A stretch of 47,637 bases of DNA from an uncultured Spirochaetales bacterium (GTDB lineage: Bacteria; Spirochaetota; Spirochaetia; JABEVK01), in NCBI GenBank assembly GCA_964624355.1, contig CAZUXL010000001.1, positions 28,816 to 76,452 of the forward strand, in the 5' to 3' direction. Numbering within the stretch: the stretch's first letter is position 1; each line of letters begins with the position of its first letter. Both the position numbers and the translations under genes were made by a program. The notes under the pieces were generated by a model, which worked only from the letters and a program-made list of their open reading frames with translations, did not search any database and was not told where the DNA came from. Below, piece by piece: positions 12,137 through 47,513 of the stretch.

Positions 12137-12205
12137 GGGGTCACACCTCTAAAAAAAGGGAGGTGTGACCCCAATTATAAGCCGAACTACTTGAGGTGTG
12201 ACCCC
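12137..12205. repeat. Cluster of three GAGGTGTGACCCC motifs (one inverted pair plus a third copy)
   Basis: GGGGTCACACCTC at 12137-12149; GAGGTGTGACCCC at 12160-12172 and 12193-12205. Confidence 0.95.
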
Positions 12206-12206
12206 C

Positions 12207-13670
12207 TTAAGCTTCTTTATAAGCCTTTACCAGATCTTCCATCCCTTTTTTCGCATCGGCAAAGTACATGAGCGAGTTATCAGCGGCGTAGAGGGGATTG
12301 GGGATCCCGGCAAACCCTGGGGAAAGGGATCGTTTCAAGTTGATAACAGTCTTGGCCTTGTCCACATCCAAAATAGGCATCCCAGCTATGGGGTTTCCTT
12401 TGGGTTCCCGGGCGATGGGATTCACCACATCGTTGGCACCGATCACAAGAACCACATCGGTATTTCCGAAAGTTCCGTTAATCGCATCCATTTCCCTCAG
12501 TTTATCGTAGGGAATGTTTTCTTCTGCCAAAAGCACGTTCATGTGACCGGGCATTCGACCGGCTACTGGATGGATGCCGAATTCCACTTCGATCCCATCG
12601 GCTTCCATGGCCTCAAAAAGTTGCCGAACGGGAGTCACAGCTCGACCAACGGCCATCCCATAACCAGGAACGATTACTACTCTCTGGGCAATTTTTAGGA
12701 GGCTGGCGATCTCGTCGGCGTTGGTTGATTTGACCTTGCCGGCGTAAATGTCATCTCCCTTTTCTGTTACAATAATTTCTCCCATCCCCCCGAAGAGGAC
12801 GTTGGCTAAAGATCGGTTCATGGCTTTACACATGAGCATGGTCAGGATGATTCCCGAGGCCCCGACTAGGGCGCCGGCGATTATCAGTACCCCGTTGGAA
12901 GGGCTGAGGACGAACCCTGTAGCCGCTGCGGCTATACCGGAATAGGAGTTCAAAAGGGCTATAACGATAGGCATGTCCGCCCCACCGATGGGTAAGGTCA
13001 GAAGGAGTCCTAAAATGGAAGAGATTCCCACGATTATCCAGAAGGCCATAGTAGGAGTAATAGTGCCACCGAGAATGTCGGGGTTGATATAGACGGCGGA
13101 AAAAAACAGGGCGACAAGGACCATGATAACTTTGACTATCTGTTCGCCTTGGTACCGCACGGGTTTTTCCGTGACCACGCCTTGAAGTTTTCCCGCAGCA
13201 ATGAGGGAGCCAAAAAACGTGATTGCACCGATGATGGCTGTGGCGGCGGTGGCGATTTTGGATACCAGGGATTCCTGTTCACCGGTTCCGGAGAGAATGA
13301 GGATCATTCCTCCGGCTACCAGAATGGAGGCAATGCCCCCGAAACCATTCAGTAGTCCCACAAGTTGGGGCATTTCTTTGAAATCTACAAAAAATGCGAG
13401 CAGAGCGCCGATGACAGCTCCGAGAACTAGGGCGGTGGCGAACCAGAGGAGGATTTCTGCGGATTGAAAACTGACCTGAGCTGCTAGAAGTTGTTTGTAA
13501 AGATCTACAAAGGCACCGGTGATGGCCAGGGTCATACCTACTGCTCCAGTGATGTTTCCTTTCACAGCGGTTTTAGGTGATCCCAAGCCCTTGAGTCCGA
13601 GAATAAAGAGAACAGAACCTGCCAGGTAGAGGACATCCACAAGCAGAGTTAGGATTTGTGATGTGTCCAT
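12207..13670 (-). CDS. pntB: NAD(P) transhydrogenase beta subunit
   Basis: Multi-TM N-terminus; motifs IGGADMP, LNSYSG, AMNRS, VPGYGMAV, HPVAGRMPGHMNVLLAE and GANDVVNP. Confidence 0.97.
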   Translation of the reverse strand: MDTSQILTLLVDVLYLAGSVLFILGLKGLGSPKTAVKGNITGAVGMTLAITGAFVDLYKQLLAAQVSFQSAEILLWFATALVLGAVIGALLAFFVDFKEMPQLVGLLNGFGGIASILVAGGMILILSGTGEQESLVSKIATAATAIIGAITFFGSLIAAGKLQGVVTEKPVRYQGEQIVKVIMVLVALFFSAVYINPDILGGTITPTMAFWIIVGISSILGLLLTLPIGGADMPIVIALLNSYSGIAAAATGFVLSPSNGVLIIAGALVGASGIILTMLMCKAMNRSLANVLFGGMGEIIVTEKGDDIYAGKVKSTNADEIASLLKIAQRVVIVPGYGMAVGRAVTPVRQLFEAMEADGIEVEFGIHPVAGRMPGHMNVLLAEENIPYDKLREMDAINGTFGNTDVVLVIGANDVVNPIAREPKGNPIAGMPILDVDKAKTVINLKRSLSPGFAGIPNPLYAADNSLMYFADAKKGMEDLVKAYKEA

Positions 13671-13671
13671 A

Positions 13672-13992
13672 TTATTTCTTCCTTGCTTTGAATTTTTCCA
13701 ACATGCGATGGGTTACCAAAAAGCCTCCCACCACATTGATCATGGCGAAGGAGATGGCAAAACCAGAGAATATCAGGGCTATGAGTTTGGTGGTGGGATC
13801 GGGGATGCGTTCAGCTAGACCCATGGAAAGGATGGCCCCCACCACCGTAATGCCGGAGATGGCGTTGGAACCGGACATGAGAGGGGTGTGGAGGAGGGAC
13901 GGAACTTTATTGATCAGTTCTACTCCGAGATAAATCGCCAGGATGAAGATGGTGATGATCTGGAGAAATAGGTGGATTTGGTCGGCGTTCAT
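13672..13992 (-). CDS. pntAB: NAD(P) transhydrogenase alpha subunit, membrane part
   Basis: LHTPLMSGSNAISG and INVVGGFLVTHRML. Confidence 0.95.
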   Translation of the reverse strand: MNADQIHLFLQIITIFILAIYLGVELINKVPSLLHTPLMSGSNAISGITVVGAILSMGLAERIPDPTTKLIALIFSGFAISFAMINVVGGFLVTHRMLEKFKARKK

Positions 13993-15152
13993 GAATTACC
14001 TCCTAAGCCGAGGGTGGTGGAAGCCCTTTCAGAACCTGGTAAGCCATTCATGGTAACCAAGGTTGCTGCCACGATATCGTCATCTTTATTTATGACTAAG
14101 GCTTTTTCCTTGTTTATGAGAAGTCCCAAGAAATTACAAATATTTTTTGAATACATTTGGGACGCATGGTAGGCCACGGTGGAAGGAACATTCAAAGGCC
14201 CGGCAATGGTCACATTATGTTTTACCACAGTTTTTCCCGGCTCGGTGAGTTCGCAGTTTCCACCTTTTTCACTGGCCAAGTCCACGATGACGCTGCCTGC
14301 GGGCATGGATTTCACCATTTCTTCGGTAATGAGTTTTGGACTGGGACGGCCAGGGATGGCGGCGGTGGTTACAATCACATCTATGTCTTTCACATACTCC
14401 GCCATGAGCTGTTTTTGTTTCACTTGCTGTTCGGGGGTTAATTCTTTTGCATAACCGCCAGCACCCGAGGCATCTCCGATGTCAAAGGAAACAAATTTCG
14501 CCCCCAGGGATTCCACTTGTTCTTTCACCGCAGATCGTACATCAAAGGCCGAGACCACGGCTCCCAATCTTCTGGCGGTGGCAATGGCCTGAAGTCCGGC
14601 TACACCGGCACCGAGGATGAAAACCTTGGCAGGTACTATGGTTCCCGCGGCCGTCATCATCATGGGAAACATTTTTGGAAGGAGGTCTGCCCCCATGAGG
14701 ACGCCACGGTAACCGGCTAGGTTGGCCTGGCTGGAGAGCACGTCCATGGCCTGTGCCCGGGTGGTCCGAGGTACCCATTCCATGGCAAAGACCGTCACTT
14801 TGTTCTTCTGAAGGTTATCAAATGCTTCATGGGGACCCCAGGGGTCCATGGTGCCGATGATTACCTGTTCTGGTTTTAAAGCCTGAGCATGAACCCGTCC
14901 CTGGGCATCTGCCGCACCAGAGCGAACGGTCAAAACAATCTGGGCTTGATCTGCAATGGTCTTAAAACTATCTACAATCTTGGCGCCTTTTTCCGAATAC
15001 TCTTCGTCCGGGTATCCAGATAAAAGCCCGGCTCCTGCTTCTACCCAAATTTCCAGACCGGCTTTTACCAGACTTGGAACATGGGCGGGAACCAAGGCCA
15101 CGCGCCGTTCCCCAGGGGTTGCTTCCTTGGGAACTCCAGCAATGATGGGCAT
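13989..15152 (-). CDS. pntAA: NAD(P) transhydrogenase alpha subunit, NAD(H)-binding part
   Basis: GERRVALVP, RAQAMDVLSS, GAGVAGLQAIATA, GGYAKE and GGNCE. Confidence 0.96.
   Translation of the reverse strand: MPIIAGVPKEATPGERRVALVPAHVPSLVKAGLEIWVEAGAGLLSGYPDEEYSEKGAKIVDSFKTIADQAQIVLTVRSGAADAQGRVHAQALKPEQVIIGTMDPWGPHEAFDNLQKNKVTVFAMEWVPRTTRAQAMDVLSSQANLAGYRGVLMGADLLPKMFPMMMTAAGTIVPAKVFILGAGVAGLQAIATARRLGAVVSAFDVRSAVKEQVESLGAKFVSFDIGDASGAGGYAKELTPEQQVKQKQLMAEYVKDIDVIVTTAAIPGRPSPKLITEEMVKSMPAGSVIVDLASEKGGNCELTEPGKTVVKHNVTIAGPLNVPSTVAYHASQMYSKNICNFLGLLINKEKALVINKDDDIVAATLVTMNGLPGSERASTTLGLGGNS
14682..14694 (+). repeat. Motif copy GAGGTCTGCCCCC inside pntAA
   Basis: Matches GAGGTSTGNCCCC. Confidence 0.7.
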
Positions 15153-15199: not shown

Positions 15200-16513
15200 C
15201 TAAGTGGCCAAGTCGTTTTTCAGCTTTCTTGTATGAGTTTCATTGTTTCTTTGAAGTTTTCGAGCTAATAATTTGGAAAGGAAGAGTCCGTACTGGGGAT
15301 ATTGTCTAATGGAGTTTACAAAAGACTTCCGAGCGATCTTTATTATTTTACCGGGAGTGTCGGCCACCACGGAGGCTGACCGTTGGTGATTTAGTAAAAA
15401 AGACATTTCTCCCATAAAAATATCCGCCGGGGTCAGAATGCCAACAGGTACATCGTCGTGGTACACCGTATATTGCCCGCTGGAGATATAAAAAATATAA
15501 TTGGAAATTTCACCCTGACGAAAAATGACAGTTCCTTTCTGGGGGAGGAGAACTTCCTCACCCACAAAGCCCACAGGTTCACTTTTAGTGGTCTTCTCAT
15601 GGGTTACGGTGAGCATGGCCACGTTCCCGGTTTTATTATAGGAAAGTTTCCCACCGAAGCTTTTTGCCAGCATGATTCCTCGGCCGTGGAGGGCGTCTTG
15701 CTTCCGAGTTTTCATTTTTTTCTGATACTCTTCCACATCGAACCCTGCTCCTTCGTCACGGACATAAAAAAATGTTTCATCCTGCCGCAGATCCCACTCC
15801 AGATGAACTTTTTTATTGGCCACCGAGGGATTTTTACACTTTTCAGCGATCAGATCCGGTAGGCTGCCCCCGGTCATCAAATGTTGGTTTTTTTCTTCAA
15901 AGCTGATATTACAATTTCCATGTTCAATCCCATTCAGGAGCAATTCCGCCAGGGAAATTTGAAGGTTTCGTTTATTTTCTTGACTAAGAAGGCCCCGTTG
16001 TACCAAGATTGTGGCTGCGAGACCGGCATAAACGGGGACAGACATCACATCATTATCAATAATAAAGCTCCCCGTGATCCTTTTGGACATGGTGTGACCC
16101 ATCTCGTACTGGAAGATTATCTGTCTATTTTTTTCCATAAGCTGAATATGGTTGAAGAGGGTTGAAACAATATTACTATGGTCGATGGTGGAAAGGAGGT
16201 TCAATTCCTTGAGTTTGTTGACTAGATCGGCTTCTTTCAGTTTATGTTTATCGTAGAGGGCAATGATGCCGAAGTTGTGAAGCCAGCTGTCTTCGTGAAT
16301 CTTTTTAATGAGGTTATCCACGTCTAAATTGGGATCCGTAGCGTTCAAAATGACGATTTCAGGAAGGTCAAAATTTAAAAGTTCCAGGCCATCTTCGATT
16401 TTTTCTGCGTAATGGAGGAAAAACGTTTTATCTTTGTCCCTGGAAAAAGCCTTTTCAATCTTGGATTTTACTTCCGCGTCAGAATTAATTACACCTATTA
16501 GACTCATAGACAT
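15200..16513 (-). CDS. Receiver-like + RsbW-type HATPase + cyclic nucleotide-binding protein
   Basis: Degenerate receiver N-terminus (LPEIVILN); ELLLNGIEHGN, VRDEGAGFD and GRGIML; C-terminal cNMP domain IFRQGE...GEMSFL...RSASV. Confidence 0.8.
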   Translation of the reverse strand: MSMSLIGVINSDAEVKSKIEKAFSRDKDKTFFLHYAEKIEDGLELLNFDLPEIVILNATDPNLDVDNLIKKIHEDSWLHNFGIIALYDKHKLKEADLVNKLKELNLLSTIDHSNIVSTLFNHIQLMEKNRQIIFQYEMGHTMSKRITGSFIIDNDVMSVPVYAGLAATILVQRGLLSQENKRNLQISLAELLLNGIEHGNCNISFEEKNQHLMTGGSLPDLIAEKCKNPSVANKKVHLEWDLRQDETFFYVRDEGAGFDVEEYQKKMKTRKQDALHGRGIMLAKSFGGKLSYNKTGNVAMLTVTHEKTTKSEPVGFVGEEVLLPQKGTVIFRQGEISNYIFYISSGQYTVYHDDVPVGILTPADIFMGEMSFLLNHQRSASVVADTPGKIIKIARKSFVNSIRQYPQYGLFLSKLLARKLQRNNETHTRKLKNDLAT

Positions 16514-20558: not shown

Positions 20559-20603
20559 AGTGGTTCATAGAAGAGTGGTTGGTTGTAATTTTTAATTTTT
20601 TTT

Positions 20604-20662
20604 GAGGTGTGACCCCCATTTTAAATTTAGATAAGAAGGTTGTAGAGGGGGGGGCACACCTC
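20604..20662. repeat. Inverted pair of the GAGGTGTGNCCCC motif
   Basis: GAGGTGTGACCCC at 20604-20616 and GGGGGCACACCTC at 20650-20662. Confidence 0.9.
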
Positions 20663-20710
20663 CAACCGTGTCTTGAACTAATGGGATTGAAAATACTATT
20701 ATAGCCTTCT

Positions 20711-22300
20711 ATGGAAAAGCACCTAGATTCCGGCCATTGGGCCGATGTTTACGCCGAAAAAGTCCTACGGGAAAAAGGCGAAAAAGAAATTTACACCTGT
20801 GCCTCGGGTATTACACCCTCAGGGACCGTTCATATTGGGAATTTTCGGGAGATTATTTCCGTAGATTTAGTGGTTCGAGCACTACGGGATCGGGGTAAAC
20901 AGGTTCGCTTTATTTATTCCTGGGATGATTATGATGTTTTCCGAAAAGTACCTAAAAATATGCCTCAACCCGAGCTGCTGGCAAAATATCTCAGACAACC
21001 TATCGTAGACGTTCCAGATACTCGGGGAATCGCTGATAATTATGCTAGAGCAAATGAAATTGAAGTGGAAAAAACTCTTCCTTCTGTTGGTATTCATCCT
21101 GACTATCTTTATCAAGCTCAGAAATATAGAGCTAGTTCTTACGCACAAGGTATTCGAACAGCTTTAGAAAAAAAAGATTTGGTGAAGGAAATCTTAGACG
21201 AGCATCGATCTGAGGAGTTGGGAGAAAATTGGTGGCCTGTTTCTGTGTTTTCCAGTTTTAATAATAGGGATGAAACTGAAATCCTAGCTTGGGATGGAGA
21301 GTGGTCTCTGACTTACAAGGATGAAGACGGGAATCAGGAAACTATTGATCTCCGAAACTCTAAAGGCGCTAAACTGCCATGGCGTTTGGACTGGCCCATG
21401 AGGTGGTCAGTGGAAAAGGTTGATTTCGAGCCCGCAGGCAAGGATCATCACTCCGATGGGGGAAGTTGGACCACCGCTCAAAGAATGGTAAAGGAAGTAT
21501 TTAACTGGGAAGCTCCGGTTACTTTCCAATATGACTTTATTTCGATCAAGGGTAGGGGGGGGAAAATCTCATCCTCCAGTGGCGAAGTGATTTCGCTACC
21601 AGATGTTCTGGAGGTATATACACCTGAGCTTACGAGGTACTTATTTGCGGGGACTCGGCCAAACGCCGAATTTGCCATTTCCTTTGATCTGGATGTTCTA
21701 AAAATTTATGAAGATTATGATAAATGTGAGAGGATCTACTACGGTGCCCAGGCAGCAAATGAAAAAGAGACCGCAAAGCAAAGTAGAATTTACGAGTTAT
21801 CCCAACCTGAGGCACCCGCAGCAGAGATGCCCTACCAGGTGACAATTCGCCACTTATCCACTTTTCTCCAGGCTTATGATGGTGATATAGAGAGGACTCT
21901 GAAAGCTCTACCAGAAGTTAAAGACTACCAGTTAGATAAACTCCGGGTAAGAGCTAACTGTGCTTGGGCTTGGGTGACATCGTTTGCCCCTGAGGATTTT
22001 CGTTTTAGTATTCGTAAAGAGGGCCAGACCTCCGCGAAACTGGAAGGAAAAGATAGAGCCGCTGCTGCTTCACTCTACAAGGAAGTGTTGAACAACTTTG
22101 ACACTCACGACGAGAAGACCCTTCACAACCGTATTTATGACATTGCCCGGGACCTGGAGATGGATACAAAAGATTTATTTCGGGCGGCATATCAGGCGTT
22201 GATTGGAAAAGACCAGGGGCCTAGGCTAGCCAGCTTCTTGATGATAATTGGAAAAGAGACTTTGTTACGACTTCTTTCAGCATACAAGGATGAGTTATGA
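20711..22300 (+). CDS. lysS: Class I lysyl-tRNA synthetase
   Basis: HWAD, SGITPSGTVHIGNFRE (HIGH-like), DWPMRW, EPAGKDH, KISSS (KMSKS-like) and GPRL. Confidence 0.96.
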   Translation: MEKHLDSGHWADVYAEKVLREKGEKEIYTCASGITPSGTVHIGNFREIISVDLVVRALRDRGKQVRFIYSWDDYDVFRKVPKNMPQPELLAKYLRQPIVDVPDTRGIADNYARANEIEVEKTLPSVGIHPDYLYQAQKYRASSYAQGIRTALEKKDLVKEILDEHRSEELGENWWPVSVFSSFNNRDETEILAWDGEWSLTYKDEDGNQETIDLRNSKGAKLPWRLDWPMRWSVEKVDFEPAGKDHHSDGGSWTTAQRMVKEVFNWEAPVTFQYDFISIKGRGGKISSSSGEVISLPDVLEVYTPELTRYLFAGTRPNAEFAISFDLDVLKIYEDYDKCERIYYGAQAANEKETAKQSRIYELSQPEAPAAEMPYQVTIRHLSTFLQAYDGDIERTLKALPEVKDYQLDKLRVRANCAWAWVTSFAPEDFRFSIRKEGQTSAKLEGKDRAAAASLYKEVLNNFDTHDEKTLHNRIYDIARDLEMDTKDLFRAAYQALIGKDQGPRLASFLMIIGKETLLRLLSAYKDEL

Positions 22301-23007
22301 CTGATAATGAGCGGGCTAAACAGGCAGCAGGCTGGGCTGCTGTGGACCAATTGGTTAAACCGGGAATGAAGTTGGGTCTTGGCTCTGGGTCTACGGCGAT
22401 TCATTGCGTGCATAGGACTTCCGAACTCTACAAATCAGGTAAACTTCCAGGACTCGTCGTTGTTGCCACTAGTTTTGATACTGAAATTGCTTGTCGGGAG
22501 GGAGGTCTGGCCCTTAAGACCTTAAATGATCCTGAAATCGCAGGGCACCTTGATCTTGCGATTGATGGTGCTGATGAGATTGATCCTCACCTAAATTTAA
22601 TCAAAGGTGGAGGGGCAGCCCATCTTTGGGAAAAAATCGTTGCTCAAGCAGCTGATGACTTTGTAGTAGTTGCTGATGAGTCCAAATTAGTTGATTCACT
22701 ATGTCGGAAATTTTTTCTCCCAGTAGAAATAATTCCAACTGCCATGACTTTTGTCGAACGGAAAATTCGATCTTTAGGAGGTCTGCCCCAACTCCGTAGA
22801 GGTTCAGGAAAGCTTGGTCCTGTAGTGACTGACATGGGAAATTTTATTTTTGATGTGAAATTTTCCAGGGATTTTAACTTATTAAAAATGGGGGCAGACC
22901 TCAACACTATAGCAGGAGTCGTTGAGACAGGACTATTTTTAGGAATGGCTTCTCAGGCTTTTATAGCTCAAAGTGACGGGAGTGTTAGGATTCTCGTGGC
23001 CAACTAA
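22297..23007 (+). CDS. rpiA: Ribose-5-phosphate isomerase A
   Basis: GLGSGST, DGADEID, IKGGGAA, EKIVA and GVVETGLF. Confidence 0.96.
   Translation: MTDNERAKQAAGWAAVDQLVKPGMKLGLGSGSTAIHCVHRTSELYKSGKLPGLVVVATSFDTEIACREGGLALKTLNDPEIAGHLDLAIDGADEIDPHLNLIKGGGAAHLWEKIVAQAADDFVVVADESKLVDSLCRKFFLPVEIIPTAMTFVERKIRSLGGLPQLRRGSGKLGPVVTDMGNFIFDVKFSRDFNLLKMGADLNTIAGVVETGLFLGMASQAFIAQSDGSVRILVAN
22890..22902 (-). repeat. Motif copy GAGGTCTGCCCCC inside rpiA
   Basis: Plus strand reads GGGGGCAGACCTC. One-mismatch copies lie nearby at 22020-22032 and 22778-22790. Confidence 0.7.
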
Positions 23008-23191: not shown

Positions 23192-23710
23192 ATGAGAAAG
23201 TTGAGAAAAATACAGGAACTTGCTGTTTATCACGTAACTGCTAGGGCTGTTCACCGTAGGACCCTTTTAGATCCCAGACCAGTTAAAGAGATGTTTTTAA
23301 AGGTATTAGCTCGTGCAAAGCTAAAGTTTAATTTTAAAATAGAAAATTTTGTTCTGATGGACAATCATTTTCATTTTATTATTAGACCTGGGATGGGTGA
23401 AAATCTATCGAATATAATGAAATGGATTCTTCAGACCTTTGCTATCCGATATAATAAAATCCACGGACTCTGGGGTCATTTTTGGGGTGGTCGATTTTCA
23501 TCTAGTATAATTCCTAGTTTTAGAGAATTCATAAGAATATTTGAGTATATAGACAACAACCCTGTGAATGCTGGATTAGTTAAAGATTCGATCGATTGGC
23601 CTTGGGGTGGTTCTGCTTTTCGCAGATCGGGACAAACGGGCATAATAGAGGAATTATCTGCGTGGTTGAGAGTCCTATTCCCGGGACATTTACCGGATTC
23701 AAATTTGTAA
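23192..23710 (+). mobile_element. HUH Y1 tyrosine transposase/nuclease, RAYT (TnpA-REP)/IS200-like
   Basis: YHVTAR, VLMDNHFHF (HUH), RYN...GHFWGGRF, catalytic YIDNNPVNAGLV and WPW. No tnpB adjacent. Confidence 0.88.
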
Positions 23711-28686: not shown

Positions 28687-30108
28687 TCACCGCGAAGGAT
28701 AGGCACCTAATAGTCTGAATTCTGAGGCCTTTTCCGTTAATGCTTTTCTGGCCGCATCAAAAAGAGCCATATCCGCCGGTACTTCCACATCCACATAGAA
28801 CATATATGACCATGGCTTCCCATGAATAGGCCGACTTTCAATTTTTCTCATGTTCAACTGATGCTGGGAGAGGATCGATAAACAATCCGATAGGGCTCCT
28901 GGGGAATGGGCTGTGGAAAAAACCAGGGAGGCTTTGTTCACTAGCCCTAGAGGTGTGACCCCCAAAGGGGCAATGAGGGCAAATCGTGTAAAGTTTCTAG
29001 GATTGGTTTCCACACCGGATTTTAGAATTTCCATACCGTAAAATTTGGCTGCTACAGCACTGGCTATCCCCGCAAGAGTGGGATCCTTTTGCTCTGCCAC
29101 ATAAGCCACGCTTCCAGCAGTATCATAAAAGGGAACACGCTCCCACTCGGGATGTTGATCCAGGAAGGCCGCCGACTGAGCCAGACCCTGGGGATGGGAG
29201 TAAACTTTTTTTATATCCTGGAGGGTCGCACCTGGGAGCCCTATTAAATTATGTTCAATCCTAATTTGGGTCTCTGCAACGATATGAAGATCGGGATATT
29301 GGAGTAAAAGGTCGAAATTATCGTGAATCGAACCCGCTAGGGCATTTTCCAAAGGGAGGAGACCATAATCCACCTCTCCTTTAAGCACCGCCTCATACAC
29401 ATCCCTGAAGGCCTTCATGGGAATGGCTGACGTATCCTTAGGGTCAAAGAGGGAAAAAACAGCCAGTTCTGAATAGGCTCCCCGCTCACCCTGAAATGCC
29501 ACGGTTCTTGAATTCCCCGGGTTTTGGGTTTGTTCCGGAATGTGGACAATTTTTTTCAAGGGAGGCCTAATTAATTCTTTTTCCAAACTGAAGACCAGAG
29601 ACTTCAACTGTGGGTAGAGTTCTTCCCAGGTTTCCAGATTAGTGAAGGGAGCCAAAACACCTTCTACCCCGCATGCCAGGGCACCCATGATCACAGAACT
29701 CACGTTTTCATGGGTGTTTTCCACTTGAAGGATGATCGGAAGTCTGATCTGGTTCTGTAAACCGGTTAAAAATTCCAAGTCGGTTGAATGACAGATGAGA
29801 GCCAGGTTCCTCCATCCTTGTGTCCAAAGATTTTGAGCCTTCTCCAGCCATACCTCCGGGGACGATTTTCCTTGATCTAAAAACAAGGGGTTTTCTTTTT
29901 CTTGCGCGGGCTGTTTTTGATCGGGGGTGATGATTTGATATTCTGGTTTCCACAGGAGGGTTTCGGTCCAGGGGCTTTTGCCCCGGGGGATGTTAAAATT
30001 TTCGGGAGTCTGGAGGAACACCCCGGCACGGGATTCCCCTAAGATCAAATCATTGAGATGAAGCTCGGTCCGGGGGCCTGGACCCCATATTCCCTGTTGT
30101 TCCGTCAT
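28687..30108 (-). CDS. pheA: Prephenate dehydratase with an N-terminal extra domain
   Basis: VAFQGERGAYSE, PLENALAG, SHPQGLAQ, NFTRF and ACT domain IESRP, preceded by about 200 extra N-terminal residues. Confidence 0.9.
   Translation of the reverse strand: MTEQQGIWGPGPRTELHLNDLILGESRAGVFLQTPENFNIPRGKSPWTETLLWKPEYQIITPDQKQPAQEKENPLFLDQGKSSPEVWLEKAQNLWTQGWRNLALICHSTDLEFLTGLQNQIRLPIILQVENTHENVSSVIMGALACGVEGVLAPFTNLETWEELYPQLKSLVFSLEKELIRPPLKKIVHIPEQTQNPGNSRTVAFQGERGAYSELAVFSLFDPKDTSAIPMKAFRDVYEAVLKGEVDYGLLPLENALAGSIHDNFDLLLQYPDLHIVAETQIRIEHNLIGLPGATLQDIKKVYSHPQGLAQSAAFLDQHPEWERVPFYDTAGSVAYVAEQKDPTLAGIASAVAAKFYGMEILKSGVETNPRNFTRFALIAPLGVTPLGLVNKASLVFSTAHSPGALSDCLSILSQHQLNMRKIESRPIHGKPWSYMFYVDVEVPADMALFDAARKALTEKASEFRLLGAYPSR
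28950..28962 (+). repeat. Exact GAGGTGTGACCCC inside pheA
   Basis: Encodes G-V-T-P-L in the linker before the ACT domain. Confidence 0.9.
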
Positions 30109-34683: not shown

Positions 34684-35421
34684 TTATTTATCATGAAAGT
34701 TGTATTTATCCAAAAATGTCCACTGTCCAGAATTTAACTCCAGGGACTCCAAATTGAGATTGCCTTCCGCCGTTCTCCGCAGTGTTTCGCAGAAGTTTCC
34801 TGTGGCTGCAATCATTCGCCGGACTTGATGGTATTTTCCCTGGTCAATTTTCATTTCCATGAGGAATTCCCCTAAGATTTTTACCTCTAGAGCCTTATCT
34901 GGACCAGGTTCCCCCCGGAGTTGCACTCCATTTAATAGGAGATTTTTTTGGTCCTGGGTAATAGGATCACGAGTTCCCACCTCGTAGGTTTTATGGATAT
35001 GATGTTTTGGACTGGTCATATGGTGAATAAACTCCCCATCATCGCTTAAAAGAAGGAGTCCGGTGGTATTTTGATCAAGACGGCCCGCACTTTGAATCCC
35101 TCTATTTACCAGGTAATCGGGGAGGAGATCGAAAACACTTAAATGGTGTTGGGGTGATGCGGAACATTCATAACCGGAGGGTTTGTTTAAAGCCAGGTAC
35201 ACTTTTTCCCTAAAAAAGTAGGTGTGACCCCCGATGGAGAATTCCAAACCCACTTCAGACTGGTTCAGAGGATTCAATTCACGCTTAAGATCGACAATTA
35301 TTTCTCCCTCAAAACTAAAGAGTCCAGCTAGCACCAATTTTTGGCATTCTTTGCGGGAACCAAAACCTTGAGACTGTAGAAACCTGTCGGGAGTTAAGGA
35401 TTTCATAGTTATTGATAACAT
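34684..35421 (-). CDS. rsuA: RsuA-family rRNA pseudouridine synthase
   Basis: S4-like N-terminus, LNKPSGY, GRLD, TTGLLLL and GKYHQVRRM. Confidence 0.88.
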   Translation of the reverse strand: MLSITMKSLTPDRFLQSQGFGSRKECQKLVLAGLFSFEGEIIVDLKRELNPLNQSEVGLEFSIGGHTYFFREKVYLALNKPSGYECSASPQHHLSVFDLLPDYLVNRGIQSAGRLDQNTTGLLLLSDDGEFIHHMTSPKHHIHKTYEVGTRDPITQDQKNLLLNGVQLRGEPGPDKALEVKILGEFLMEMKIDQGKYHQVRRMIAATGNFCETLRRTAEGNLNLESLELNSGQWTFLDKYNFHDK

Positions 35422-35429: not shown

Positions 35430-35442
35430 GAGGTCTGTCCCC
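35430..35442 (+). repeat. Motif copy GAGGTCTGTCCCC, intergenic
   Basis: Matches GAGGTSTGNCCCC. TAGGTGTGACCCC (one mismatch) lies at 35219-35231 inside rsuA. Confidence 0.75.
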
Positions 35443-36644: not shown

Positions 36645-37907
36645 ATGAAGAATATCCCTCAAGCCAAACCCCGTCATATCATTGTTTCCGCACCTCCCGC
36701 AAAGGCCTACACTTTGCGGGCTCTACTTTTAGGCGCTCTGGCGGAAGGAAAAACTAAACTTAGACATCCTTTGCTCGCAGAAGATCAAGTGAACATGATT
36801 GCTTGTTTGGAAGGCCTAGGGGTAAAAATAAAAACTACCCCCGACTTGGTCGAAATTGAGGGGTGTGGCGGCCGCTTCCTTCCCGTGAAAGAAGAACTTT
36901 TTGTCGGGGACTCCGGGGTGACGATGAATTTTCTAATTTCTGCTCTGAGTTTTGCCCACCGACCTGTGATTTTGGGCGGGACTCCTCGGTTGAACGAGCG
37001 TCCGGTGGGGGAGGTTGTGGAGGGTATTCGTCAGCTTGGCGCTCGTGTGGAGTATTTAGGTAAGGAAGGATTCCCTCCTTTAAAAGTACATCCTCTTGGT
37101 TTAAATGGGGGTCACACCTCCCTTCACGGCGCCGTGACCTCCCAATATTTCAGTAGTTTGGTGATTTCTAGTGCTCTAGCCCGGGGGTCTGTGACTCTGG
37201 AGTGTCTCGATACCATGACCGAGCGCCCTTATTTTGATATCTCCACTTCCATGATGAGTACCTTTGGTGTCTCATGTACCAATAAGGACTACACCCAAAT
37301 AGAAATTCCCGCACCTCAGAAATACCTGGCTCGGGATCTGGAAATTGAAGGGGACTTTTCCAGTGCCTCATTTCTTTTTTTAGTCGCAGCGGTTCTAAAA
37401 AGCTCTGTAACTGTGGTGGGTCTGAATCGAAACAGTGTTCAAGGGGACAAGCGATTTCTTGATCTTCTGGAACTCATGGGTTGTAGGGTATCCTGGGATA
37501 ATGACACTGTCACTGTCACAGGTGGCGAATTGAGAGGGATTGAAGCCGACATGGGTGATGTTCCAGATTTGGTCCCCCCCTTGGCTATAGCCGCTGCATT
37601 TGCCACAGGTGAGAGCCAGTTTACCCGCATTGGTCATCTGGTTCATAAAGAATCCAATCGGGTCGTGGCTATGGAAACAGAATTGGCCAAAATGGGATGT
37701 ATTTCCCACCATGACACCCAAACTTATACCATTGTGGGGAATCCTTCTGGCTTAAAGGGTGCCGTGATCCATCCTTATAATGATCATAGAATTGCCATGA
37801 GTTTTGCAGTGGCTGGATTGGCCACAGGGGGCCAGACCTTGGAGAATCCCGAGTGTGTGGCTAAAAGTTTCCCAGACTTTTGGGAAAAATTGGAACTATT
37901 TTACTAA
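36645..37907 (+). CDS. aroA: EPSP synthase
   Basis: RP, TSQYFSS, EGDFSSASF, QGD, HKESNR, DHRIAM and KSFPDF. Confidence 0.93.
   Translation: MKNIPQAKPRHIIVSAPPAKAYTLRALLLGALAEGKTKLRHPLLAEDQVNMIACLEGLGVKIKTTPDLVEIEGCGGRFLPVKEELFVGDSGVTMNFLISALSFAHRPVILGGTPRLNERPVGEVVEGIRQLGARVEYLGKEGFPPLKVHPLGLNGGHTSLHGAVTSQYFSSLVISSALARGSVTLECLDTMTERPYFDISTSMMSTFGVSCTNKDYTQIEIPAPQKYLARDLEIEGDFSSASFLFLVAAVLKSSVTVVGLNRNSVQGDKRFLDLLELMGCRVSWDNDTVTVTGGELRGIEADMGDVPDLVPPLAIAAAFATGESQFTRIGHLVHKESNRVVAMETELAKMGCISHHDTQTYTIVGNPSGLKGAVIHPYNDHRIAMSFAVAGLATGGQTLENPECVAKSFPDFWEKLELFY
37108..37120 (-). repeat. Exact GAGGTGTGACCCC inside aroA
   Basis: Plus strand reads GGGGTCACACCTC, encoding G-G-H-T-S. A one-mismatch copy lies at 37828-37840. 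Confidence 0.9.
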
Positions 37908-37968
37908 ACATGGAAAATTGCAGAAAGGTCGGGGTTTGGGGCGAAGTCCCAGGCGAAGGGGTAGTGGA

Positions 37969-38000: not shown

Positions 38001-38108
38001 GAAGCGAGGGGGCTGGACGCCGACGAGGCGTACTAGCTGATGTCAGGGGCCATGCGTGGCCCCGGTTCCCAGAGGGAAGACAGAAATTCTCCCCCCCCCA
38101 TAAAAAAC

Positions 38109-39875
38109 TTAGACCTTAATTATCAAACCTAAATCCGCTACCTGTTTGGCATCCACTTCGCTGGGACTTTCGTCCATGGGGCTGGCCGCTTGGGTGTTTT
38201 TTGGGAAGGCGATGACTTCCCGGATGGTTTCCTGTCCGGTCATGATCATGACGAGGCGGTCCAGTCCTGGAGCGAAGCCTCCATGCGGGGGAGGTCCGTA
38301 CTTGAAGGACTCAAGGAGGAATCCGAACCGTTGTTTGGCCAGTTCCTCGGGGAAGCCCACAATATTGAATACTCTCTGCTGTAAGGCCGGGTCGTGGATT
38401 CGGATGGAGCCGGAGGCAAGCTCGAGTCCGTTGCATACCATATCATAGAGGTCTCCTTTCACTGAGCCGGGGTCGGATTCGAGGGTGGGAATGTATTGGG
38501 CTTGGGGCATGGAGAACATGTGATGGGCGGGTTCCCAGGCTTTTTCTTCTTCGTTGTATTCAAAGAGGGGGAAGTCCACGACCCAGAGGAAGTTGAAGGC
38601 CTTGGGGTCCGCCATTCCCAGTTCCCGACCGGCTTTTAGGCGGACGGCTCCCAGGGAGGTGACGGCGGTTTTGTACTTGTCGGCCACGAAGAATACCACG
38701 TCGGTGGGTTTGAGTCCGAGGGAAGTTATGAGGTGTGACCCCTGATCGGCAAAAAACTTGGCTATGCCGCCGTCGATCCCCGATTCGGTGACCTTGAGCC
38801 AGGCTAGGCCTTTGGCGCCATAGGTTTTTGCGGCTTCTTCCAGCTCGCCGATTTTTTTACGGCTGGCCCATTCGGCTTGTCCGGGGAGGACCCAGGCTTT
38901 CACCGTGCCTCCGGCGGCCACTACACCTTTGAAGGCGTCGAAGGAGGATTTTTCCACGAAGGGGGTGAAATCCTGCATGGGGAGGTCGAACCGGAGTTCT
39001 GGCTTGTCGGAGCCGTAGAGATCTAGGGCGGTGTCGTAGGCCATCCGGGGGAAGGGGATGGGGAGGTCGTAGTTCATGGATTGTTTGAAGATATGTTTCA
39101 TCATCCCTTCGGCCACGGCAAGGACATCGTCCCGGGTAACATAGGACATTTCCACGTCGATCTGGGTGAATTCGGGCTGGCGGTCACCTCTAGCGTCTTC
39201 GTCCCGGTAGCATCGGGCGATTTGATAGTACCGGTCCATTCCCCCCACCATAAGCAGCTGTTTGTAGAGCTGGGGTGACTGGGGAAGGGCGTAGAATTTA
39301 CCCTTGTTGATCCGGCTGGGGACCAAGAAGTCCCGGGCGCCTTCGGGGGTGGATTTGATGAGGGTCGGTGTTTCGATTTCCAGGAAGGACTGGGAATTCA
39401 AATACTCCCGGGCAGCGAAGGCGACTTTGTGGCGAAGGACCAGTCGGCTTTGCATTCCAGAATTGCGGAGGTCCAAGTACCGGTACTGGAGACGGAGGTT
39501 TTCGTTGGCTTTATTTTCATCTTCGATCTGGAAGGGTAGGGTGGGAGACGTGGAATAAATAAGGATATCCGTGGCCACCACTTCGATTTCACCGGTGGGC
39601 ATATCTTTGTTGATCATATCCGTGGGACGGGCTCGGACTTTGCCCTTGATGGCTACGCTAAACTCTGGCTTGAGGGATTCTGCTTTGGCTTTGAGTTCGG
39701 TGGGGACATTTTCATCAAAGACCACCTGGGTCATGCCGTACCGGTCCCGGAGGGTGAAAAATACGATGCCGCCGAAATTTCGGAGCCTGTGGACCCAGCC
39801 GTTAAGGATCACGTCCTGGCCAGCTTGAGGAGTGCGGAGATCTCCGCAGGTATGAGTTCTTTTTAGGGCTTGCAT
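38109..39875 (-). CDS. aspS: Aspartyl-tRNA synthetase
   Basis: RTHTCG, RLQYRYLDLR, STPEGARDFLVPSR, LPQSPQ, RDED, GSIRIH and PPHGG. Start moved to ATG 39875. Confidence 0.97.
   Translation of the reverse strand: MQALKRTHTCGDLRTPQAGQDVILNGWVHRLRNFGGIVFFTLRDRYGMTQVVFDENVPTELKAKAESLKPEFSVAIKGKVRARPTDMINKDMPTGEIEVVATDILIYSTSPTLPFQIEDENKANENLRLQYRYLDLRNSGMQSRLVLRHKVAFAAREYLNSQSFLEIETPTLIKSTPEGARDFLVPSRINKGKFYALPQSPQLYKQLLMVGGMDRYYQIARCYRDEDARGDRQPEFTQIDVEMSYVTRDDVLAVAEGMMKHIFKQSMNYDLPIPFPRMAYDTALDLYGSDKPELRFDLPMQDFTPFVEKSSFDAFKGVVAAGGTVKAWVLPGQAEWASRKKIGELEEAAKTYGAKGLAWLKVTESGIDGGIAKFFADQGSHLITSLGLKPTDVVFFVADKYKTAVTSLGAVRLKAGRELGMADPKAFNFLWVVDFPLFEYNEEEKAWEPAHHMFSMPQAQYIPTLESDPGSVKGDLYDMVCNGLELASGSIRIHDPALQQRVFNIVGFPEELAKQRFGFLLESFKYGPPPHGGFAPGLDRLVMIMTGQETIREVIAFPKNTQAASPMDESPSEVDAKQVADLGLIIKV
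38730..38742 (+). repeat. Exact GAGGTGTGACCCC inside aspS
   Basis: Encodes Q-G-S-H-L on the coding strand. Confidence 0.9.
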
Positions 39876-39929
39876 AATGGGATCTATGTTAAAGGAAAAT
39901 TGTGGGTTTAACAAGATCGGGGAAAATTG

Positions 39930-39942
39930 GAGGTGTGACCCC
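39930..39942 (+). repeat. Exact GAGGTGTGACCCC, intergenic upstream of aspS
   Basis: Read directly from the sequence. Confidence 0.9.
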
Positions 39943-39953
39943 GGTTTAAAAAA

Positions 39954-40487
39954 TCAGTCCTTGGAAGATCCTATTTTTTTTCGTCCGAACAACATCCAGA
40001 AAGAGATTTTAATGAAGGCAAACAACCCAGCCATTAAAAGGAGCAGTCGATCTATGGAACCAAAAAAGCCCACAAAGATTCGGGTTTTATCCACGGCTAA
40101 AGCCAGGGCGAAGCTCACAGCCAACAGAGCCATAAGAGCTGATAGGCGTCCGAATCCCGGAATATCATTAAAATTGAGTCTTCTTCGAATGAGAGAGAGG
40201 GTGAGAACCATGGAAACCAAAGGCAGTAGGTAGACGTAGAAATTCACATCCAGAAGGTTTTCCTTGGTAAAAAAAAGAGTATAAGCGACTAGAACGCTGG
40301 AAATAATCCCGGGGAGGCAACTGAGATATACAAGAAATCCATAAATATATTTCCAAGGGCACTGAGTGCTGGATTCACCTTTGTGAAGAATCCCCAAGAT
40401 AAGAACACCCAGGGGTAGTCCAAGAAAAACTGCCAAATATACCAGGGGCTGCTGCCCCGAATAGGTAATCAAATCTCTTATGCTCAA
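39954..40487 (-). CDS. Hypothetical multi-pass membrane protein
   Basis: About 5 hydrophobic helices; AGGAGGT RBS precedes TTG at 40487, so the start was shortened from 40559. Confidence 0.75.
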   Translation of the reverse strand: MSIRDLITYSGQQPLVYLAVFLGLPLGVLILGILHKGESSTQCPWKYIYGFLVYLSCLPGIISSVLVAYTLFFTKENLLDVNFYVYLLPLVSMVLTLSLIRRRLNFNDIPGFGRLSALMALLAVSFALALAVDKTRIFVGFFGSIDRLLLLMAGLFAFIKISFWMLFGRKKIGSSKD

Positions 40488-41850: not shown

Positions 41851-42384
41851 ATGTTAAGTAAAAAGATGGCAGATGGTTTGCAAGCTCAGATCAATAAGGA
41901 AATGGCTTCAGCGTATATTTATTTGGGGATGTCAGCCCAATGTTCCGAATTGAATTGGCCAGGATTTTCTAAATGGTTCATGGTTCAGTACCACGAAGAG
42001 ATGTTTCATTCCATGAAAATCTATAATTATCTTCTGGAACAAGGGGTCAGACCTACTTTGGGGGCCATCCCAGCACCCAAATCTGAATATTCCGGTTTGA
42101 AGGATATGTTTGAGGCCACCTATGCCCACGAGCAGGGGGTGACCAAGTCTATTTGGAACCTCATGTCCCTGGCTAAAGAAGACAAGGATTATGCCACCGA
42201 GGGTTTTCTTGCTTGGTATGTGAAAGAACAAGTGGAAGAAGAGGCTAACGACCAAGAAATCCTGACCTGGTTGGGACGAATCGGGGAATCCGCCGGGGGG
42301 CTGTTTCAACTGGATCACAAATTGGGTAAACGGGGCGTCGGTGTTCCCACGGACTTTACGAATCTCCTGGGAGATGAGTCCTAA
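41851..42384 (+). CDS. ftnA: Non-heme ferritin
   Basis: QINKEMASAYIY, QYHEEMFH, HEQ and WYVKEQVEEE (ferroxidase ligands). Contains a one-mismatch motif copy at 42043-42055. Confidence 0.93.
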   Translation: MLSKKMADGLQAQINKEMASAYIYLGMSAQCSELNWPGFSKWFMVQYHEEMFHSMKIYNYLLEQGVRPTLGAIPAPKSEYSGLKDMFEATYAHEQGVTKSIWNLMSLAKEDKDYATEGFLAWYVKEQVEEEANDQEILTWLGRIGESAGGLFQLDHKLGKRGVGVPTDFTNLLGDES

Positions 42385-45492: not shown

Positions 45493-46632
45493 TTATTGAT
45501 TGGTTAAATGAAAACCCCTTACTATTCCATCTTCTGTCAAGGTGATTAGCAAGTTATCTTTTCTCTGGGGTGGACTCCAGAAGCGGCTTTTTAATATGAG
45601 TTTATTCACCAGATCACCTGTTTTTTTATTAAGAAGATAGAGGGACTTGGAATCCGATCCACCCACCCAGAGCCAATCCCCATCAAGGGCAATAACATTC
45701 ATCCAGGAGCCACCGGAAAGGGGCATGGTTTCATTCCACAATAATTTATTCCCATTGAGATCCCATGCTAGAACGTGTTTACCTGGAGCTCTGAGTGGCA
45801 GGTAAAGTATGGAATTTTCGAAAGTGAAATCCGTTCCTAGAGGCCTAGGAAGGGTAAATCTATCTAAAAGTCCACCGTTCAGGGAGTTCAGTCGGACCCC
45901 TTCCCGGCGGTTAAGAAAGCCCACAAGACCGTTTTCAGTCATCTTCAGGGTCCAAAGTCCTGGAGTCCTGGATCCCGTGGTCTTCCAGGGCCCGCTGGTC
46001 CACTTCAGCTCTCCCGTATCCACGTCCCAAGCTCTGACCGTGCTGGATCCATCCATGAGATAAACCAAGTTCTGGTAGATTGCTACACCCCCATTGCGAA
46101 AGGTCCAGGGTTCAGGCTGAGGGGAGGGGCCGGCATCTACACTCCAAAGGACTGTACCGTTCAATAAGTTCAAGGCTACGAGCTGCCCCTCCAAGGTGGG
46201 CAGAATTACCTTTCCATCCCCCGCCCAGAGAATTGTGGACATTTTTCCTGGGGCGGCTTCCCACAGCTTTTTCCCTGTGGAGCCTTCGTAGGCCGAAAGG
46301 ATTGATTCAGTGGCCACTAAAAGTGTTTCCCCAGACCAAAGAGGGTCCGCACAGGGTGATTTACCCAAATTAACCGTCCAAAGGCGATGACCCGCATAAT
46401 CCAGAACATGGAGGGTGCCTTCCTCATTTAAGAGGGCTATCTTGTCTTCCCCGCATGCCAAGGTGCCAAAGGAGGGAGATTCAAGGGAATACTTCCAAGC
46501 TTCAGCCCAGGATCCCCGTGTCTGGTTTGGGGTCATGGGTTCATCCGCCATGGTTAGATGGGGAATGGGAAACCGTGTGGACGAACAAGAGGTCCACACA
46601 AGAGCCAGTATCAGGAAAAAGTTGATCTTCAT
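45493..46632 (-). CDS. PQQ-like/BamB-like beta-propeller lipoprotein
   Basis: Signal peptide with lipobox VWTS-C and repeated G-x-x-x-W blades (TGKKLW, NGTVLW, TGELKW). GAGG RBS precedes ATG 46632. Confidence 0.8.
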   Translation of the reverse strand: MKINFFLILALVWTSCSSTRFPIPHLTMADEPMTPNQTRGSWAEAWKYSLESPSFGTLACGEDKIALLNEEGTLHVLDYAGHRLWTVNLGKSPCADPLWSGETLLVATESILSAYEGSTGKKLWEAAPGKMSTILWAGDGKVILPTLEGQLVALNLLNGTVLWSVDAGPSPQPEPWTFRNGGVAIYQNLVYLMDGSSTVRAWDVDTGELKWTSGPWKTTGSRTPGLWTLKMTENGLVGFLNRREGVRLNSLNGGLLDRFTLPRPLGTDFTFENSILYLPLRAPGKHVLAWDLNGNKLLWNETMPLSGGSWMNVIALDGDWLWVGGSDSKSLYLLNKKTGDLVNKLILKSRFWSPPQRKDNLLITLTEDGIVRGFHLTNQ

Positions 46633-46649
46633 AATTACCTCTGCAATCC

Positions 46650-46680
46650 AGTCTCCACCTTCAAGCAGCTTGAAGGTCAA
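46650..46680 (-). promoter_or_regulatory. MerR-type promoter/operator
   Basis: Minus strand: TTGACC, 19-bp spacer, GAGACT. A perfect palindrome ACCTTCAAGC-A-GCTTGAAGGT (46657-46677) overlaps the -35 and the spacer. Confidence 0.85.
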
Positions 46681-46697
46681 TGCATTATTCTATTTTT

Positions 46698-47513
46698 ATG
46701 AGTGGTGAAAATCTGACGGTGGGTGAAATTGCAAAACTCCTGGGACTGAATGCCAGTGCCCTGAGATACTATGAATCCTTGGGACTCGTGTACCCTGAAA
46801 AAATTGATCCCTGGACCGGCTACAGGAAATTTTCCCCAAAACAGCTTTATCTGCTCAATTTCATCAAAGCCATGGCCGATTTGGATCTTCCCCTTAAAGC
46901 CCTGAAAAAACTCACTGTGACCGAGGATTCCCAAGAGACCAAGAGGCAGTTGAAAATCCATCAAACCTTTTTAGAAAAAAAGATAGCTGAGTTCCAACGG
47001 AAGTTAGGCTACACCCGGGGAGCTTTGCAGAATTTGACTTGGGAATCGGTAGAGGTTCCAGGCTGGAAAGAGGAGCCAGAGTCTTGGTTCCTAGAGTACC
47101 GGGAATCTCTGGGATATTCTTTTTCCGGTTATGCCTTAGCCCGTACAAAGATCATGAAGGCTGCGGATACATTGGAATTGGAACTTCGGGATGAACAGAC
47201 CGCCGGGTTTTCACTGGATGCGGGGCCAGACATCTGGAAGAACTTTCTCTACTACAGGTTTCCCCTGGCCAGGAAGCCCCCTGAGACGAAATATCCCGTG
47301 GGGGTTACGTTGGTTCAGGAATCAGCTTGCCGGATATGGGATGTCCTGGTGGAAGGTCCGGTACCCCAAATGTTTCAGTCCGCTGAGGAATGGAGAGAAA
47401 AGCTGGGGGCAATACTCCCTAATCCTGTTAGGGTGGAATTAATTCATCTACGGGGTACCAATGTTACTCCCCGGGAGCGGGAATTCCTGACACTTCTGAG
47501 GTTCCGGTGGTAG
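46698..47513 (+). CDS. MerR-family transcriptional regulator (BmrR-like size)
   Basis: LTVGEIAKLLG...ALRYYE.LGL..P..ID..TGYR HTH, coiled coil and C-terminal effector domain. Confidence 0.92.
   Translation: MSGENLTVGEIAKLLGLNASALRYYESLGLVYPEKIDPWTGYRKFSPKQLYLLNFIKAMADLDLPLKALKKLTVTEDSQETKRQLKIHQTFLEKKIAEFQRKLGYTRGALQNLTWESVEVPGWKEEPESWFLEYRESLGYSFSGYALARTKIMKAADTLELELRDEQTAGFSLDAGPDIWKNFLYYRFPLARKPPETKYPVGVTLVQESACRIWDVLVEGPVPQMFQSAEEWREKLGAILPNPVRVELIHLRGTNVTPREREFLTLLRFRW

Follow-up and report, generated by a model that had tools for sequence, protein, structure and literature searches.

A 47,637-nt stretch of DNA from an uncultured Spirochaetales bacterium (the window; G000:C1:28816-76452, G000 being the source genome, a 3.51-Mb draft in 242 contigs with a GC content of 47.7%, a completeness of 96.1% and a contamination of 3.58%) repeats one 13-letter word, GAGGTGTGACCCC, in intergenic DNA and in core genes, which raises the question of what recognises this word and how its copies came about. 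A first-pass annotation of the window had left three readings side by side, namely a new uptake-like sequence, a site recognised by the HUH nuclease encoded at 23192, and a nucleoid-protein site. Our analysis favours the nuclease, and we consider it likely that a spirochaete clade of RAYT-like HUH tyrosine nucleases has the 13-mer as its cognate DNA word; a member of this clade is encoded at window 23192-23710.

The repeated word is real. All eight exact copies reported earlier were found with their starts and strands (Table 1), and 100 dinucleotide-preserving shuffles of the window contained none. Searching with GAGGTSTGNCCCC and allowing up to one mismatch returned 24 matches (0.62 expected, three in the richest shuffle), among them all five relaxed and all eight one-mismatch copies of the annotation, whose counts had been given as minima and had indeed overlooked three copies (16034-, 22502+ and 25483+; 24 versus 21). 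Genome-wide, the commonest N-free 13-mers, GAGGTCTGTCCCC (23 copies), GAGGTGTGACCCC (21) and GAGGTCTGACCCC (19), all belong to the word family. Relaxing single positions in turn yielded [G>N][A>G]GGT[C/G]TG[A/T]CCC[C/T], and the other strand of the 13-mer reads GGGG[AT]CA[GC]ACCTC. The strict word, GAGGTSTGWCCCY, has 101 copies in the genome (54 on the plus and 47 on the minus strand) and the loose word, with the first two positions relaxed, has 201, i.e. about 0.03-0.06 per kb; copies with one mismatch at an invariant position number about 44 versus the 101 perfect ones. As the flanks of the copies are not conserved, the repeat unit is the bare word. Gene calls based on open reading frames (ORFs) contain 78 strict copies, compared with a mean of 3.1 (maximum 7) after shuffling synonymous codons with the protein kept and of 0.75 (maximum 2) after shuffling codon order (20 shuffles each), so that the in-gene frequency lies far above the codon-shuffled background that had been named as a possible refutation. 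The description of the word as dispersed holds insofar as both intergenic DNA and core genes carry it, but its distribution is uneven, with 8 of the 21 exact genome copies falling within the 47.6-kb window.

The product of the nuclease gene has no Pfam domain besides Y1_Tnp. His59, His61 and Tyr119 are conserved in an alignment of 12 sequences, with the motifs NHFH and YIDNNPV, and the sole relative in the PDB is E. coli TnpA-REP (4ER8; E 2.9e-11, 46 bits). G000 encodes paralogues at C46:9929-10426 (64% identical) and C40:3725-4189 (49%), the three being only 49-64% identical, that is, not near-identical copies. The ORF failed a codon-usage gene caller and falls within the 2-kb bin of the window that has the lowest GC content (0.407); this suggests a foreign or atypical composition. 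On the opposite strand a 237-aa ORF (23718-24431) with no Pfam or NCBIfam match ends 8 nt past the nuclease gene.

The word adjoins genes of this family. It brackets each of the C40 and C46 paralogues on the sense strand as GGGG[AT]CAGACCTC, with both flanks in direct orientation. More generally, a sense-strand copy lies 40-135 nt upstream of the nuclease genes on G000:C40, G000:C46, G007:C3, G001:C5, G001:C19 and G004:C131. The last two have the upstream word only; the other four carry a further copy 0-45 nt downstream, and at all four of these two-flank loci both words are on the same strand. When one genome per species was scanned, at least 599 stretches matched a pattern, and at least 527 of them encode a relative. 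The best 80 of these loci are almost all labelled Spirochaetota, and we examined the 72 in which the match starts at residue 1, leaving out eight that start later. GGGNNCNGA occurs within 200 nt upstream in 50 of the 72, the main upstream dialects being GGGGACAGAGC., GGGGACGGAGG. and GGGGACAGACC.. there. A related gene is also carried by a Treponema isolate record (L078).

The word dialect follows the nuclease clade. A quick maximum-likelihood tree of 76 nuclease proteins splits into two main halves (support 99 each), one containing all 16 GGGGACGGAGG loci and the other 23 of the 25 GGGGACAGAGC loci together with all six ACC loci. Dialect labels require 20 changes on this tree, compared with a mean of 35.9 for shuffled labels, and none of 200 shuffles was as low. 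The pattern used for labelling is blind to flanks starting AGGG, and G000_C46 and G001_C5 were labelled 'none' although the word adjoins both. A second element was seen in front of these genes: of 69 loci (L027-L105, with at least 120 nt upstream), 18 have a GAAGCA box ahead of the nuclease start codon, compared with 4 of 69 for a reversed-word control; the box is located exactly at -35 in 12 loci and at -34 to -36 in 15, always 3' of the word. The nuclease gene of the window has CAAGCA at the equivalent spot (23150-23160). The box may be a promoter or leader element.

Gene and word also occur together. We compared G000 and 30 relatives, using the reversed word as control; these genomes are kin, their counts are not independent and represent a pattern rather than a statistical test. 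The nuclease gene is patchy, with a match in 13 of the 31 genomes and an intact gene in 11, and all 11 intact-gene genomes are enriched for one dialect relative to the control. For the word the numbers are 101 versus 0 in G000, 61 versus 0 in G001, 32 versus 0 in G004 and 104 versus 0 in G007, and for the respective dialect 51 versus 19 in G009, 109 versus 16 in G011, 104 versus 19 in G014, 122 versus 13 in G025, 76 versus 19 in G026, 41 versus 8 in G028 and 61 versus 14 in G029. No enrichment was found in G020, whose nuclease copy contains an in-frame TGA (21 versus 16), or in G018, which has a weak nuclease match (E 1.3e-8). The 18 genomes without a nuclease match have at most 19 copies of GGGGACRGAG, with an excess over the control of at most 9, and at most three of the other word. 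The co-occurrence with the RAYT clade that the annotation had proposed to look for is thus seen.

The copies form a local halo around the nuclease gene, in both orientations and mainly within tens of kilobases. In G000 they concentrate on C1 (26), C40 (18), C68 (10), C43 (9) and C46 (9), most large contigs having none or one, and contigs without any copy total 1.76 Mb, half of the bases. This clumping gives a chi-square of 779, compared with a mean of 241 and a maximum of 358 in 2000 simulated draws, and copy pairs on the same contig share a variant at a frequency of 0.315 (permuted maximum 0.215). Within the window six CTG[GC]CCC copies lie at 22020-25495, directly around the nuclease gene, and the GTGACCCC (GTGACCC) dialect extends on C1 from 49 kb before this gene to 40 kb after it, comprising 17 of 36 genome copies. 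In G031, a complete 3.2-Mb chromosome with a single gene at 466,301-466,795, the interval 446-476 kb contains 14 of 34 copies, and the remaining copies thin out. G028 has 33 of its 41 copies on C3, the contig of the gene, 21 of them at 125-157 kb around the gene at 140.5 kb (within about 16 kb). On G033:C1 two halos are found 117 kb apart, 35 copies at 412-486 kb around a gene at 448.4 kb and nine copies in 10.6 kb around a second gene at 565.3 kb. In G001, 36 of 78 copies are located on two gene-bearing contigs, with the variant ..CCCT around the C5 gene and ..CCCC around the C19 gene.

A comparison of related species agrees with this picture. The region G001:C5 138.6-155 kb can be aligned with G007:C10 over 16,087 columns (75% identity), and in this syntenic stretch of about 17 kb G001, which has the gene, carries nine copies, whereas G007, which lacks it, carries two, both common to G001. 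The nuclease cassette of G001 (L119 9355-10369) has as its counterpart in G007, between the same conserved neighbours, roughly 1 kb of unrelated sequence (C10:75440-76426); because that sequence is unrelated, the boundaries of the G001:C5 cassette are undefined. Elsewhere, G032:C4:603400-603511 consists of seven tandem GGGGACGGAG copies with a period of 17 nt, 200 kb from the nuclease gene of that contig, and two reverse copies follow about 800 nt further.

Most copies are located inside genes. In G000, 163 of the 201 loose copies (81%) lie in ORF-based gene calls, the coding fraction being 0.87, and they use all three reading frames, as had been read from the exact copies in pheA, aroA and aspS (GVTPL, GGHTS and QGSHL, in phases 0, 1 and 2). 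The sole orientation bias is between the 108 in-gene copies with GGGG... on the coding strand and the 55 in the reverse orientation; codon constraints, for instance TGA in one frame, may account for it. The annotation had asked whether the motif in AspS, AroA and PheA arose by substitution or insertion: aligned with ten orthologues for aspS and five each for aroA and pheA, the copies show substitution and no insertion or deletion, and the same holds for three copies in rpiA compared with RpiA 1lk5. All six window copies checked are gap-free, the word overlying a variable stretch between conserved residues. Between G001 and G007 all seven alignable copies are gap-free as well, three of the seven being kept in both species as the word or a near-word. 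Empty sites contain near-matches (for example AGGTCGGGGCCT against AGGTCTGTCCCT, and also AGGGCCAAGCCC) or sequence that is unrelated but equally long, and the outgroups G004 and G009 show similar near-matches. The gap-free codon alignments rule out an origin of the copies by insertion and, together with the near-matches at empty sites, indicate that copies were recruited from existing sequence. These alignments show that copies arise in place, by substitution of near-matching sequence.

How a nuclease might produce this pattern can be outlined. TnpA-REP acts on single-stranded DNA at REP hairpins. In the mechanism that we propose, each nuclease gene would have a copy of the word immediately in front of it and often another right behind it, on the sense strand and in a dialect of its own for each paralogue. 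The enzyme would bind single-stranded DNA at the word and probably nick and reseal it, by analogy with the Y1 family including E. coli TnpA-REP 4ER8 as treated in the texts of PMC6006769 and PMC8266576. It may act mostly near its own gene, where a fixation bias favouring perfect words over near-matches could conceivably give rise to the halo. Hairpins formed by intergenic inverted pairs would be a by-product and may act as terminators. Two such pairs noted earlier do fold better than shuffles, 12137/12160 with a 14-bp stem (-17.9 kcal/mol, z -4.42) and 20604/20650 (-13.3 kcal/mol, z -3.19). More tentatively, the nuclease clade might drive near-matches in neighbouring housekeeping genes to its perfect word without insertion, altering encoded residues, in what would be a cis-acting 'word drive'. 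Every paralogue would then surround itself with a halo of its particular dialect. If so, this would be a way for selfish DNA to spread, or a form of local sequence evolution directed by an enzyme, distinct from transposition, uptake bias and long-repeat gene conversion.

A number of observations weigh against the nuclease reading. The proposal that the word is a site of the enzyme encoded at 23192 gains from the gene family, through flanking position, co-occurrence, dialects and halos, but not from this gene itself, which has no copy within 220 nt, the nearest sense-strand copy lying 290 nt upstream in rpiA. Its product scores 76.3 bits with the NCBIfam model REP_Tyr_transpos, slightly below the cut-off of 80. 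Halos are not universal: on G033:C7 only three copies lie within about 20 kb of the gene, one of them just upstream, and G032 (57 versus 40) has flank copies and the tandem array and no halo. The G000 contigs C43, C55, C68, C96 and C98 are copy-dense (6-10 each) and contain no nuclease match; a tblastx comparison of such contigs with 80 kb of G001 found no synteny, so that placing them beside gene-bearing contigs failed, and the 242-contig draft precludes measuring halo size in G000. The co-occurrence counts, as stated, come from kin. Copies divide evenly between replication strands (77 G-rich versus 77 C-rich, with 21 low-skew sites and sites on contigs below 10 kb left out), unlike the lagging-strand bias reported for IS200/IS605 elements. 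To our knowledge every characterised Y1 enzyme recognises hairpins, and the folding of three single copies of the word does not surpass that of shuffles (z 0.15, -0.71 and 0.81). We also know of no HUH reaction that rewrites a word without a change in length; HUH strand exchange shifts whole flanks, so that length or order would change. Binding and cleavage at the word are putative, the enzymology being borrowed from a weakly similar relative (46 bits to 4ER8).

Other explanations have to be weighed against the same data. The nuclease-like protein could be a domesticated chromosome-organising or fork-handling factor and the halo a selected array of sites, like parS or matS. Sites that cluster around the gene of their presumed binder, lie inside genes without disruption, are kept at three of seven alignable positions between two species 75% identical in DNA and are accompanied by few degenerate copies would suit such a host function. 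We nevertheless regard it as unlikely, since one genome can contain a separate halo for each of several paralogues, as on G033:C1, the gene varies in position between species of one genus with the halo moving along, the genes are patchy, the word is asymmetric, and instead of a DNA-binding fold the protein has its catalytic residues, His-x-His and Tyr, intact.

Causality might also run in the opposite direction, with word-rich regions existing first and a mobile nuclease cassette inserting at the word. The flanks in direct orientation are as expected after insertion beside a target copy, the gene position differs between G001 and G007, and some insertion sequences target REP sequences. This order of events is quite improbable given that none of the 31 genomes shows enrichment without the gene, that the dialect co-varies with protein clade and paralogue, and that the gene-less syntenic stretch of G007 has two copies compared with nine in G001.

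The uptake reading suggested by the annotation, in which the transformation machinery favours the word and uptake bias spreads it as for the DNA uptake sequences (DUS) and uptake signal sequences (USS), draws on the occurrence in both orientations, in three frames and at variable protein positions without insertions or deletions, on the intergenic inverted pairs, on the ComEC gene of the genome and on a related word that a neighbouring genus has as well. It does not stand up to the distribution of the word, and we give it very little credence. DUS and USS occur roughly once per kb, whereas G000 has only 101-201 copies in 3.5 Mb, clumped by contig, and half of its assembly bases are in copy-free contigs. 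Copies centre on the nuclease gene, with a different variant around each paralogue, and uptake bias could not produce such a local halo. ComEC (PF03772) is present in all 31 genomes, in 30 above the cut-off, whether or not they have the word, and so does not discriminate between them, whereas enrichment of the word is confined to genomes that have the nuclease gene; no search for a ComP-type pilin receptor was made.

A nucleoid-protein site, also raised earlier, may apply as a function but would be hard to reconcile with more than one halo in a genome. The even split between replication strands argues against a KOPS- or Chi-like or lagging-strand reading. An artefact, through a bin mixing two organisms or an assembly that created the word, is scarcely credible: the draft has 242 contigs and some contamination and confines the copies to a subset of contigs, but aspS is single-copy in the bin, in-gene copies leave reading frames open, the same pattern occurs in a complete chromosome and in assemblies of other records, and contigs of four public runs cover the stretch.

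For the last point, contigs of the coded runs X1, X3, X5 and X6 were compared with window 20200-40199; two cover it over its whole length, mostly at 99% identity or more. Among the differences listed none falls at a motif copy, which is uninformative on polymorphism as contigs drop rare variants. One X3 contig (depth 3.2) joins 37042 to 37120, the last base of the aroA copy; this may be an assembly jump and is treated as unreliable. The copies in the window and the nuclease gene are listed in Table 1.

Table 1. Word copies and nuclease gene in the window (window coordinates; 'relaxed', 'one-mismatch' and 'overlooked' refer to the first-pass annotation).
Position	Strand	Feature	Basis
12137..12149	-	Exact copy, intergenic, between convergent genes 11176-12090(+) and 12207-13670(-)	motif search
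12160..12172	+	Exact copy, intergenic, inverted partner of 12137	motif search
12193..12205	+	Exact copy, intergenic, end 2 nt before pntB stop codon	motif search
14682..14694	+	GAGGTCTGCCCCC, relaxed, in gene 13989-15152(-)	GAGGTSTGNCCCC search
16034..16046	-	GATGTCTGTCCCC, 1 mismatch, overlooked, in gene 15200-16513(-)	GAGGTSTGNCCCC search
20604..20616	+	Exact copy, intergenic, upstream of lysS	motif search
20650..20662	-	GAGGTGTGCCCCC, relaxed, inverted partner of 20604	GAGGTSTGNCCCC search
22020..22032	-	GAGGTCTGGCCCT, one-mismatch, in lysS, member of tight cluster around nuclease gene	GAGGTSTGNCCCC search
22502..22514	+	GAGGTCTGGCCCT, overlooked, in rpiA, reads GGLAL	GAGGTSTGNCCCC search; no indel vs RpiA 1lk5
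22778..22790	+	GAGGTCTGCCCCA, one-mismatch, in rpiA, reads GGLPQ	GAGGTSTGNCCCC search; no indel vs RpiA 1lk5
22890..22902	-	GAGGTCTGCCCCC, relaxed, in rpiA, closest sense-strand copy to nuclease gene, 290 nt before its start	GAGGTSTGNCCCC search; no indel vs RpiA 1lk5
23192..23710	+	RAYT-like HUH/Y1 nuclease gene, 172 aa, intact	Pfam Y1_Tnp 50.9 bits (cut-off 23)
24540..24552	-	GAGGTATGACCCC, one-mismatch, in GDE_C glycosidase gene 24471-27182(-)	motif search
24783..24795	-	GAGGTCTGGCCCC, relaxed, in GDE_C glycosidase gene 24471-27182(-)	GAGGTSTGNCCCC search
25483..25495	+	GAGGTCTGGCCCT, overlooked, in GDE_C glycosidase gene 24471-27182(-)	GAGGTSTGNCCCC search
26999..27011	+	CAGGTCTGACCCC, one-mismatch, in GDE_C glycosidase gene 24471-27182(-)	GAGGTSTGNCCCC search
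28950..28962	+	Exact copy in pheA(-), reads GVTPL (phase 0), no indel	codon alignment
35219..35231	+	TAGGTGTGACCCC, one-mismatch, in gene 34684-35421(-)	motif search
35430..35442	+	GAGGTCTGTCCCC, relaxed, intergenic	GAGGTSTGNCCCC search
37108..37120	-	Exact copy in aroA(+), reads GGHTS (phase 1), no indel	codon alignment
37828..37840	-	AAGGTCTGGCCCC, one-mismatch, in aroA	GAGGTSTGNCCCC search
38730..38742	+	Exact copy in aspS(-), reads QGSHL (phase 2), no indel vs 10 orthologues	codon alignment
39930..39942	+	Exact copy, just upstream of aspS	motif search
42043..42055	-	TAGGTCTGACCCC, one-mismatch	GAGGTSTGNCCCC search
47222..47234	-	GATGTCTGGCCCC, one-mismatch, in ORF 46680-47513(+)	GAGGTSTGNCCCC search

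The nuclease and its word belong with the REP/RAYT and TIRYT systems. REP/RAYT is the standard example of a transposase that has been domesticated and is accompanied by many short repeats, whose way of spreading is not settled; here the repeat consists of no more than a bare word that lies mostly inside essential genes and arises in place, and its density falls with distance from the gene of the enzyme. If the enzyme does cause the halo, a protein would be shaping the sequence of neighbouring genes and the residues they encode, and cause and effect could be read from position alone. Such words mimic DNA uptake sequences in k-mer scans, and the position of the halo separates the two. With their paralogue-specific dialects these genes provide naturally occurring specificity variants of an HUH enzyme; enzymes of this class serve in covalent protein-DNA tagging.

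The closest published counterpart is the TIRYT system (TIRtron). According to the text of Di Nocera, De Gregorio & Rocco 2013 (PMC3733652), TIRYT genes, which are RAYT-like, are flanked at a roughly constant distance by inverted repeats that share GGGGWSAS and form moderately abundant families in some species. The text of Quentin et al. 2018 (PMC6006769) assigns them to TnpAY1 subclass 2.1, with a median of 238 aa, a C-terminal helix-turn-helix and the motif YIELNP or Y[IV]HLNP. The 8-nt core of the word, GGGG[AT]CA[GC], exactly fits GGGGWSAS, at every position-relaxed count. The annotation had known of no such motif in spirochaetes, and we found no account of this spirochaete system, but its core thus matches a sequence already printed in PMC3733652. 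Literature searches, supplements not covered, returned no description of the halo, of copies sitting mostly in genes or of their origin in place; the three 13-mers were in no paper found, and 10-mer matches, among the matches listed, concern unrelated subjects by title or abstract. Compared with the TIRYT descriptions in these texts, the flanks are direct instead of inverted at all four two-flank loci, the unit is a bare 12-13-mer without conserved flanks, and the protein has 172 aa, YIDNNP and no C-terminal helix-turn-helix; by key motifs, which were compared without placement in a tree, it is nearer to subclass 2.4 or 2.6-2.7. The spirochaete host phylum, in-gene majority, in-place origin and halo are unmentioned in the text of PMC3733652, Figure 9 and supplements aside.

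With REP/REPIN-RAYT systems (REPtrons) the word has in common a single- or few-copy HUH/Y1 gene flanked by its own over-represented repeat, co-variation of protein and repeat and a patchy distribution among genomes. The gene is of the REPtron type, with a Y1_Tnp match, His-x-His and Tyr kept and 4ER8 as relative, and is flanked in the REPtron manner at G000:C40/C46, G007:C3, G001:C5/C19 and G004:C131, the window's own gene only loosely (290 nt). REPs are described in the text of PMC3733652 as palindromes of 20-40 bp, tagged GTAG or CGTC and mostly intergenic, some lying inside genes. Our word, in contrast, is non-palindromic, has no GTAG/CGTC tag, is unfolded as a single copy, and is 81% intragenic and clustered around its gene. 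IS200/IS605 elements have the same HUH/Y1 catalytic core, and their ends likewise lie on the same strand in direct orientation; however, the IS200 model NF033573 gives 21.8 bits for the nuclease of the window versus a cut-off of 55, the Tyr motif is Y---NP and not Y---Q, the paralogues are 49-64% identical and no subterminal hairpins were seen. The DUS of Neisseriaceae and USS of Pasteurellaceae resemble the word in being short and asymmetric, in occurring in both orientations and all frames, in arising by substitution in genes and in forming intergenic inverted pairs, whereas the word, with no link to uptake machinery in the ComEC comparison, is at least tenfold sparser than the DUS/USS density given above, strongly local and tied to a nuclease.

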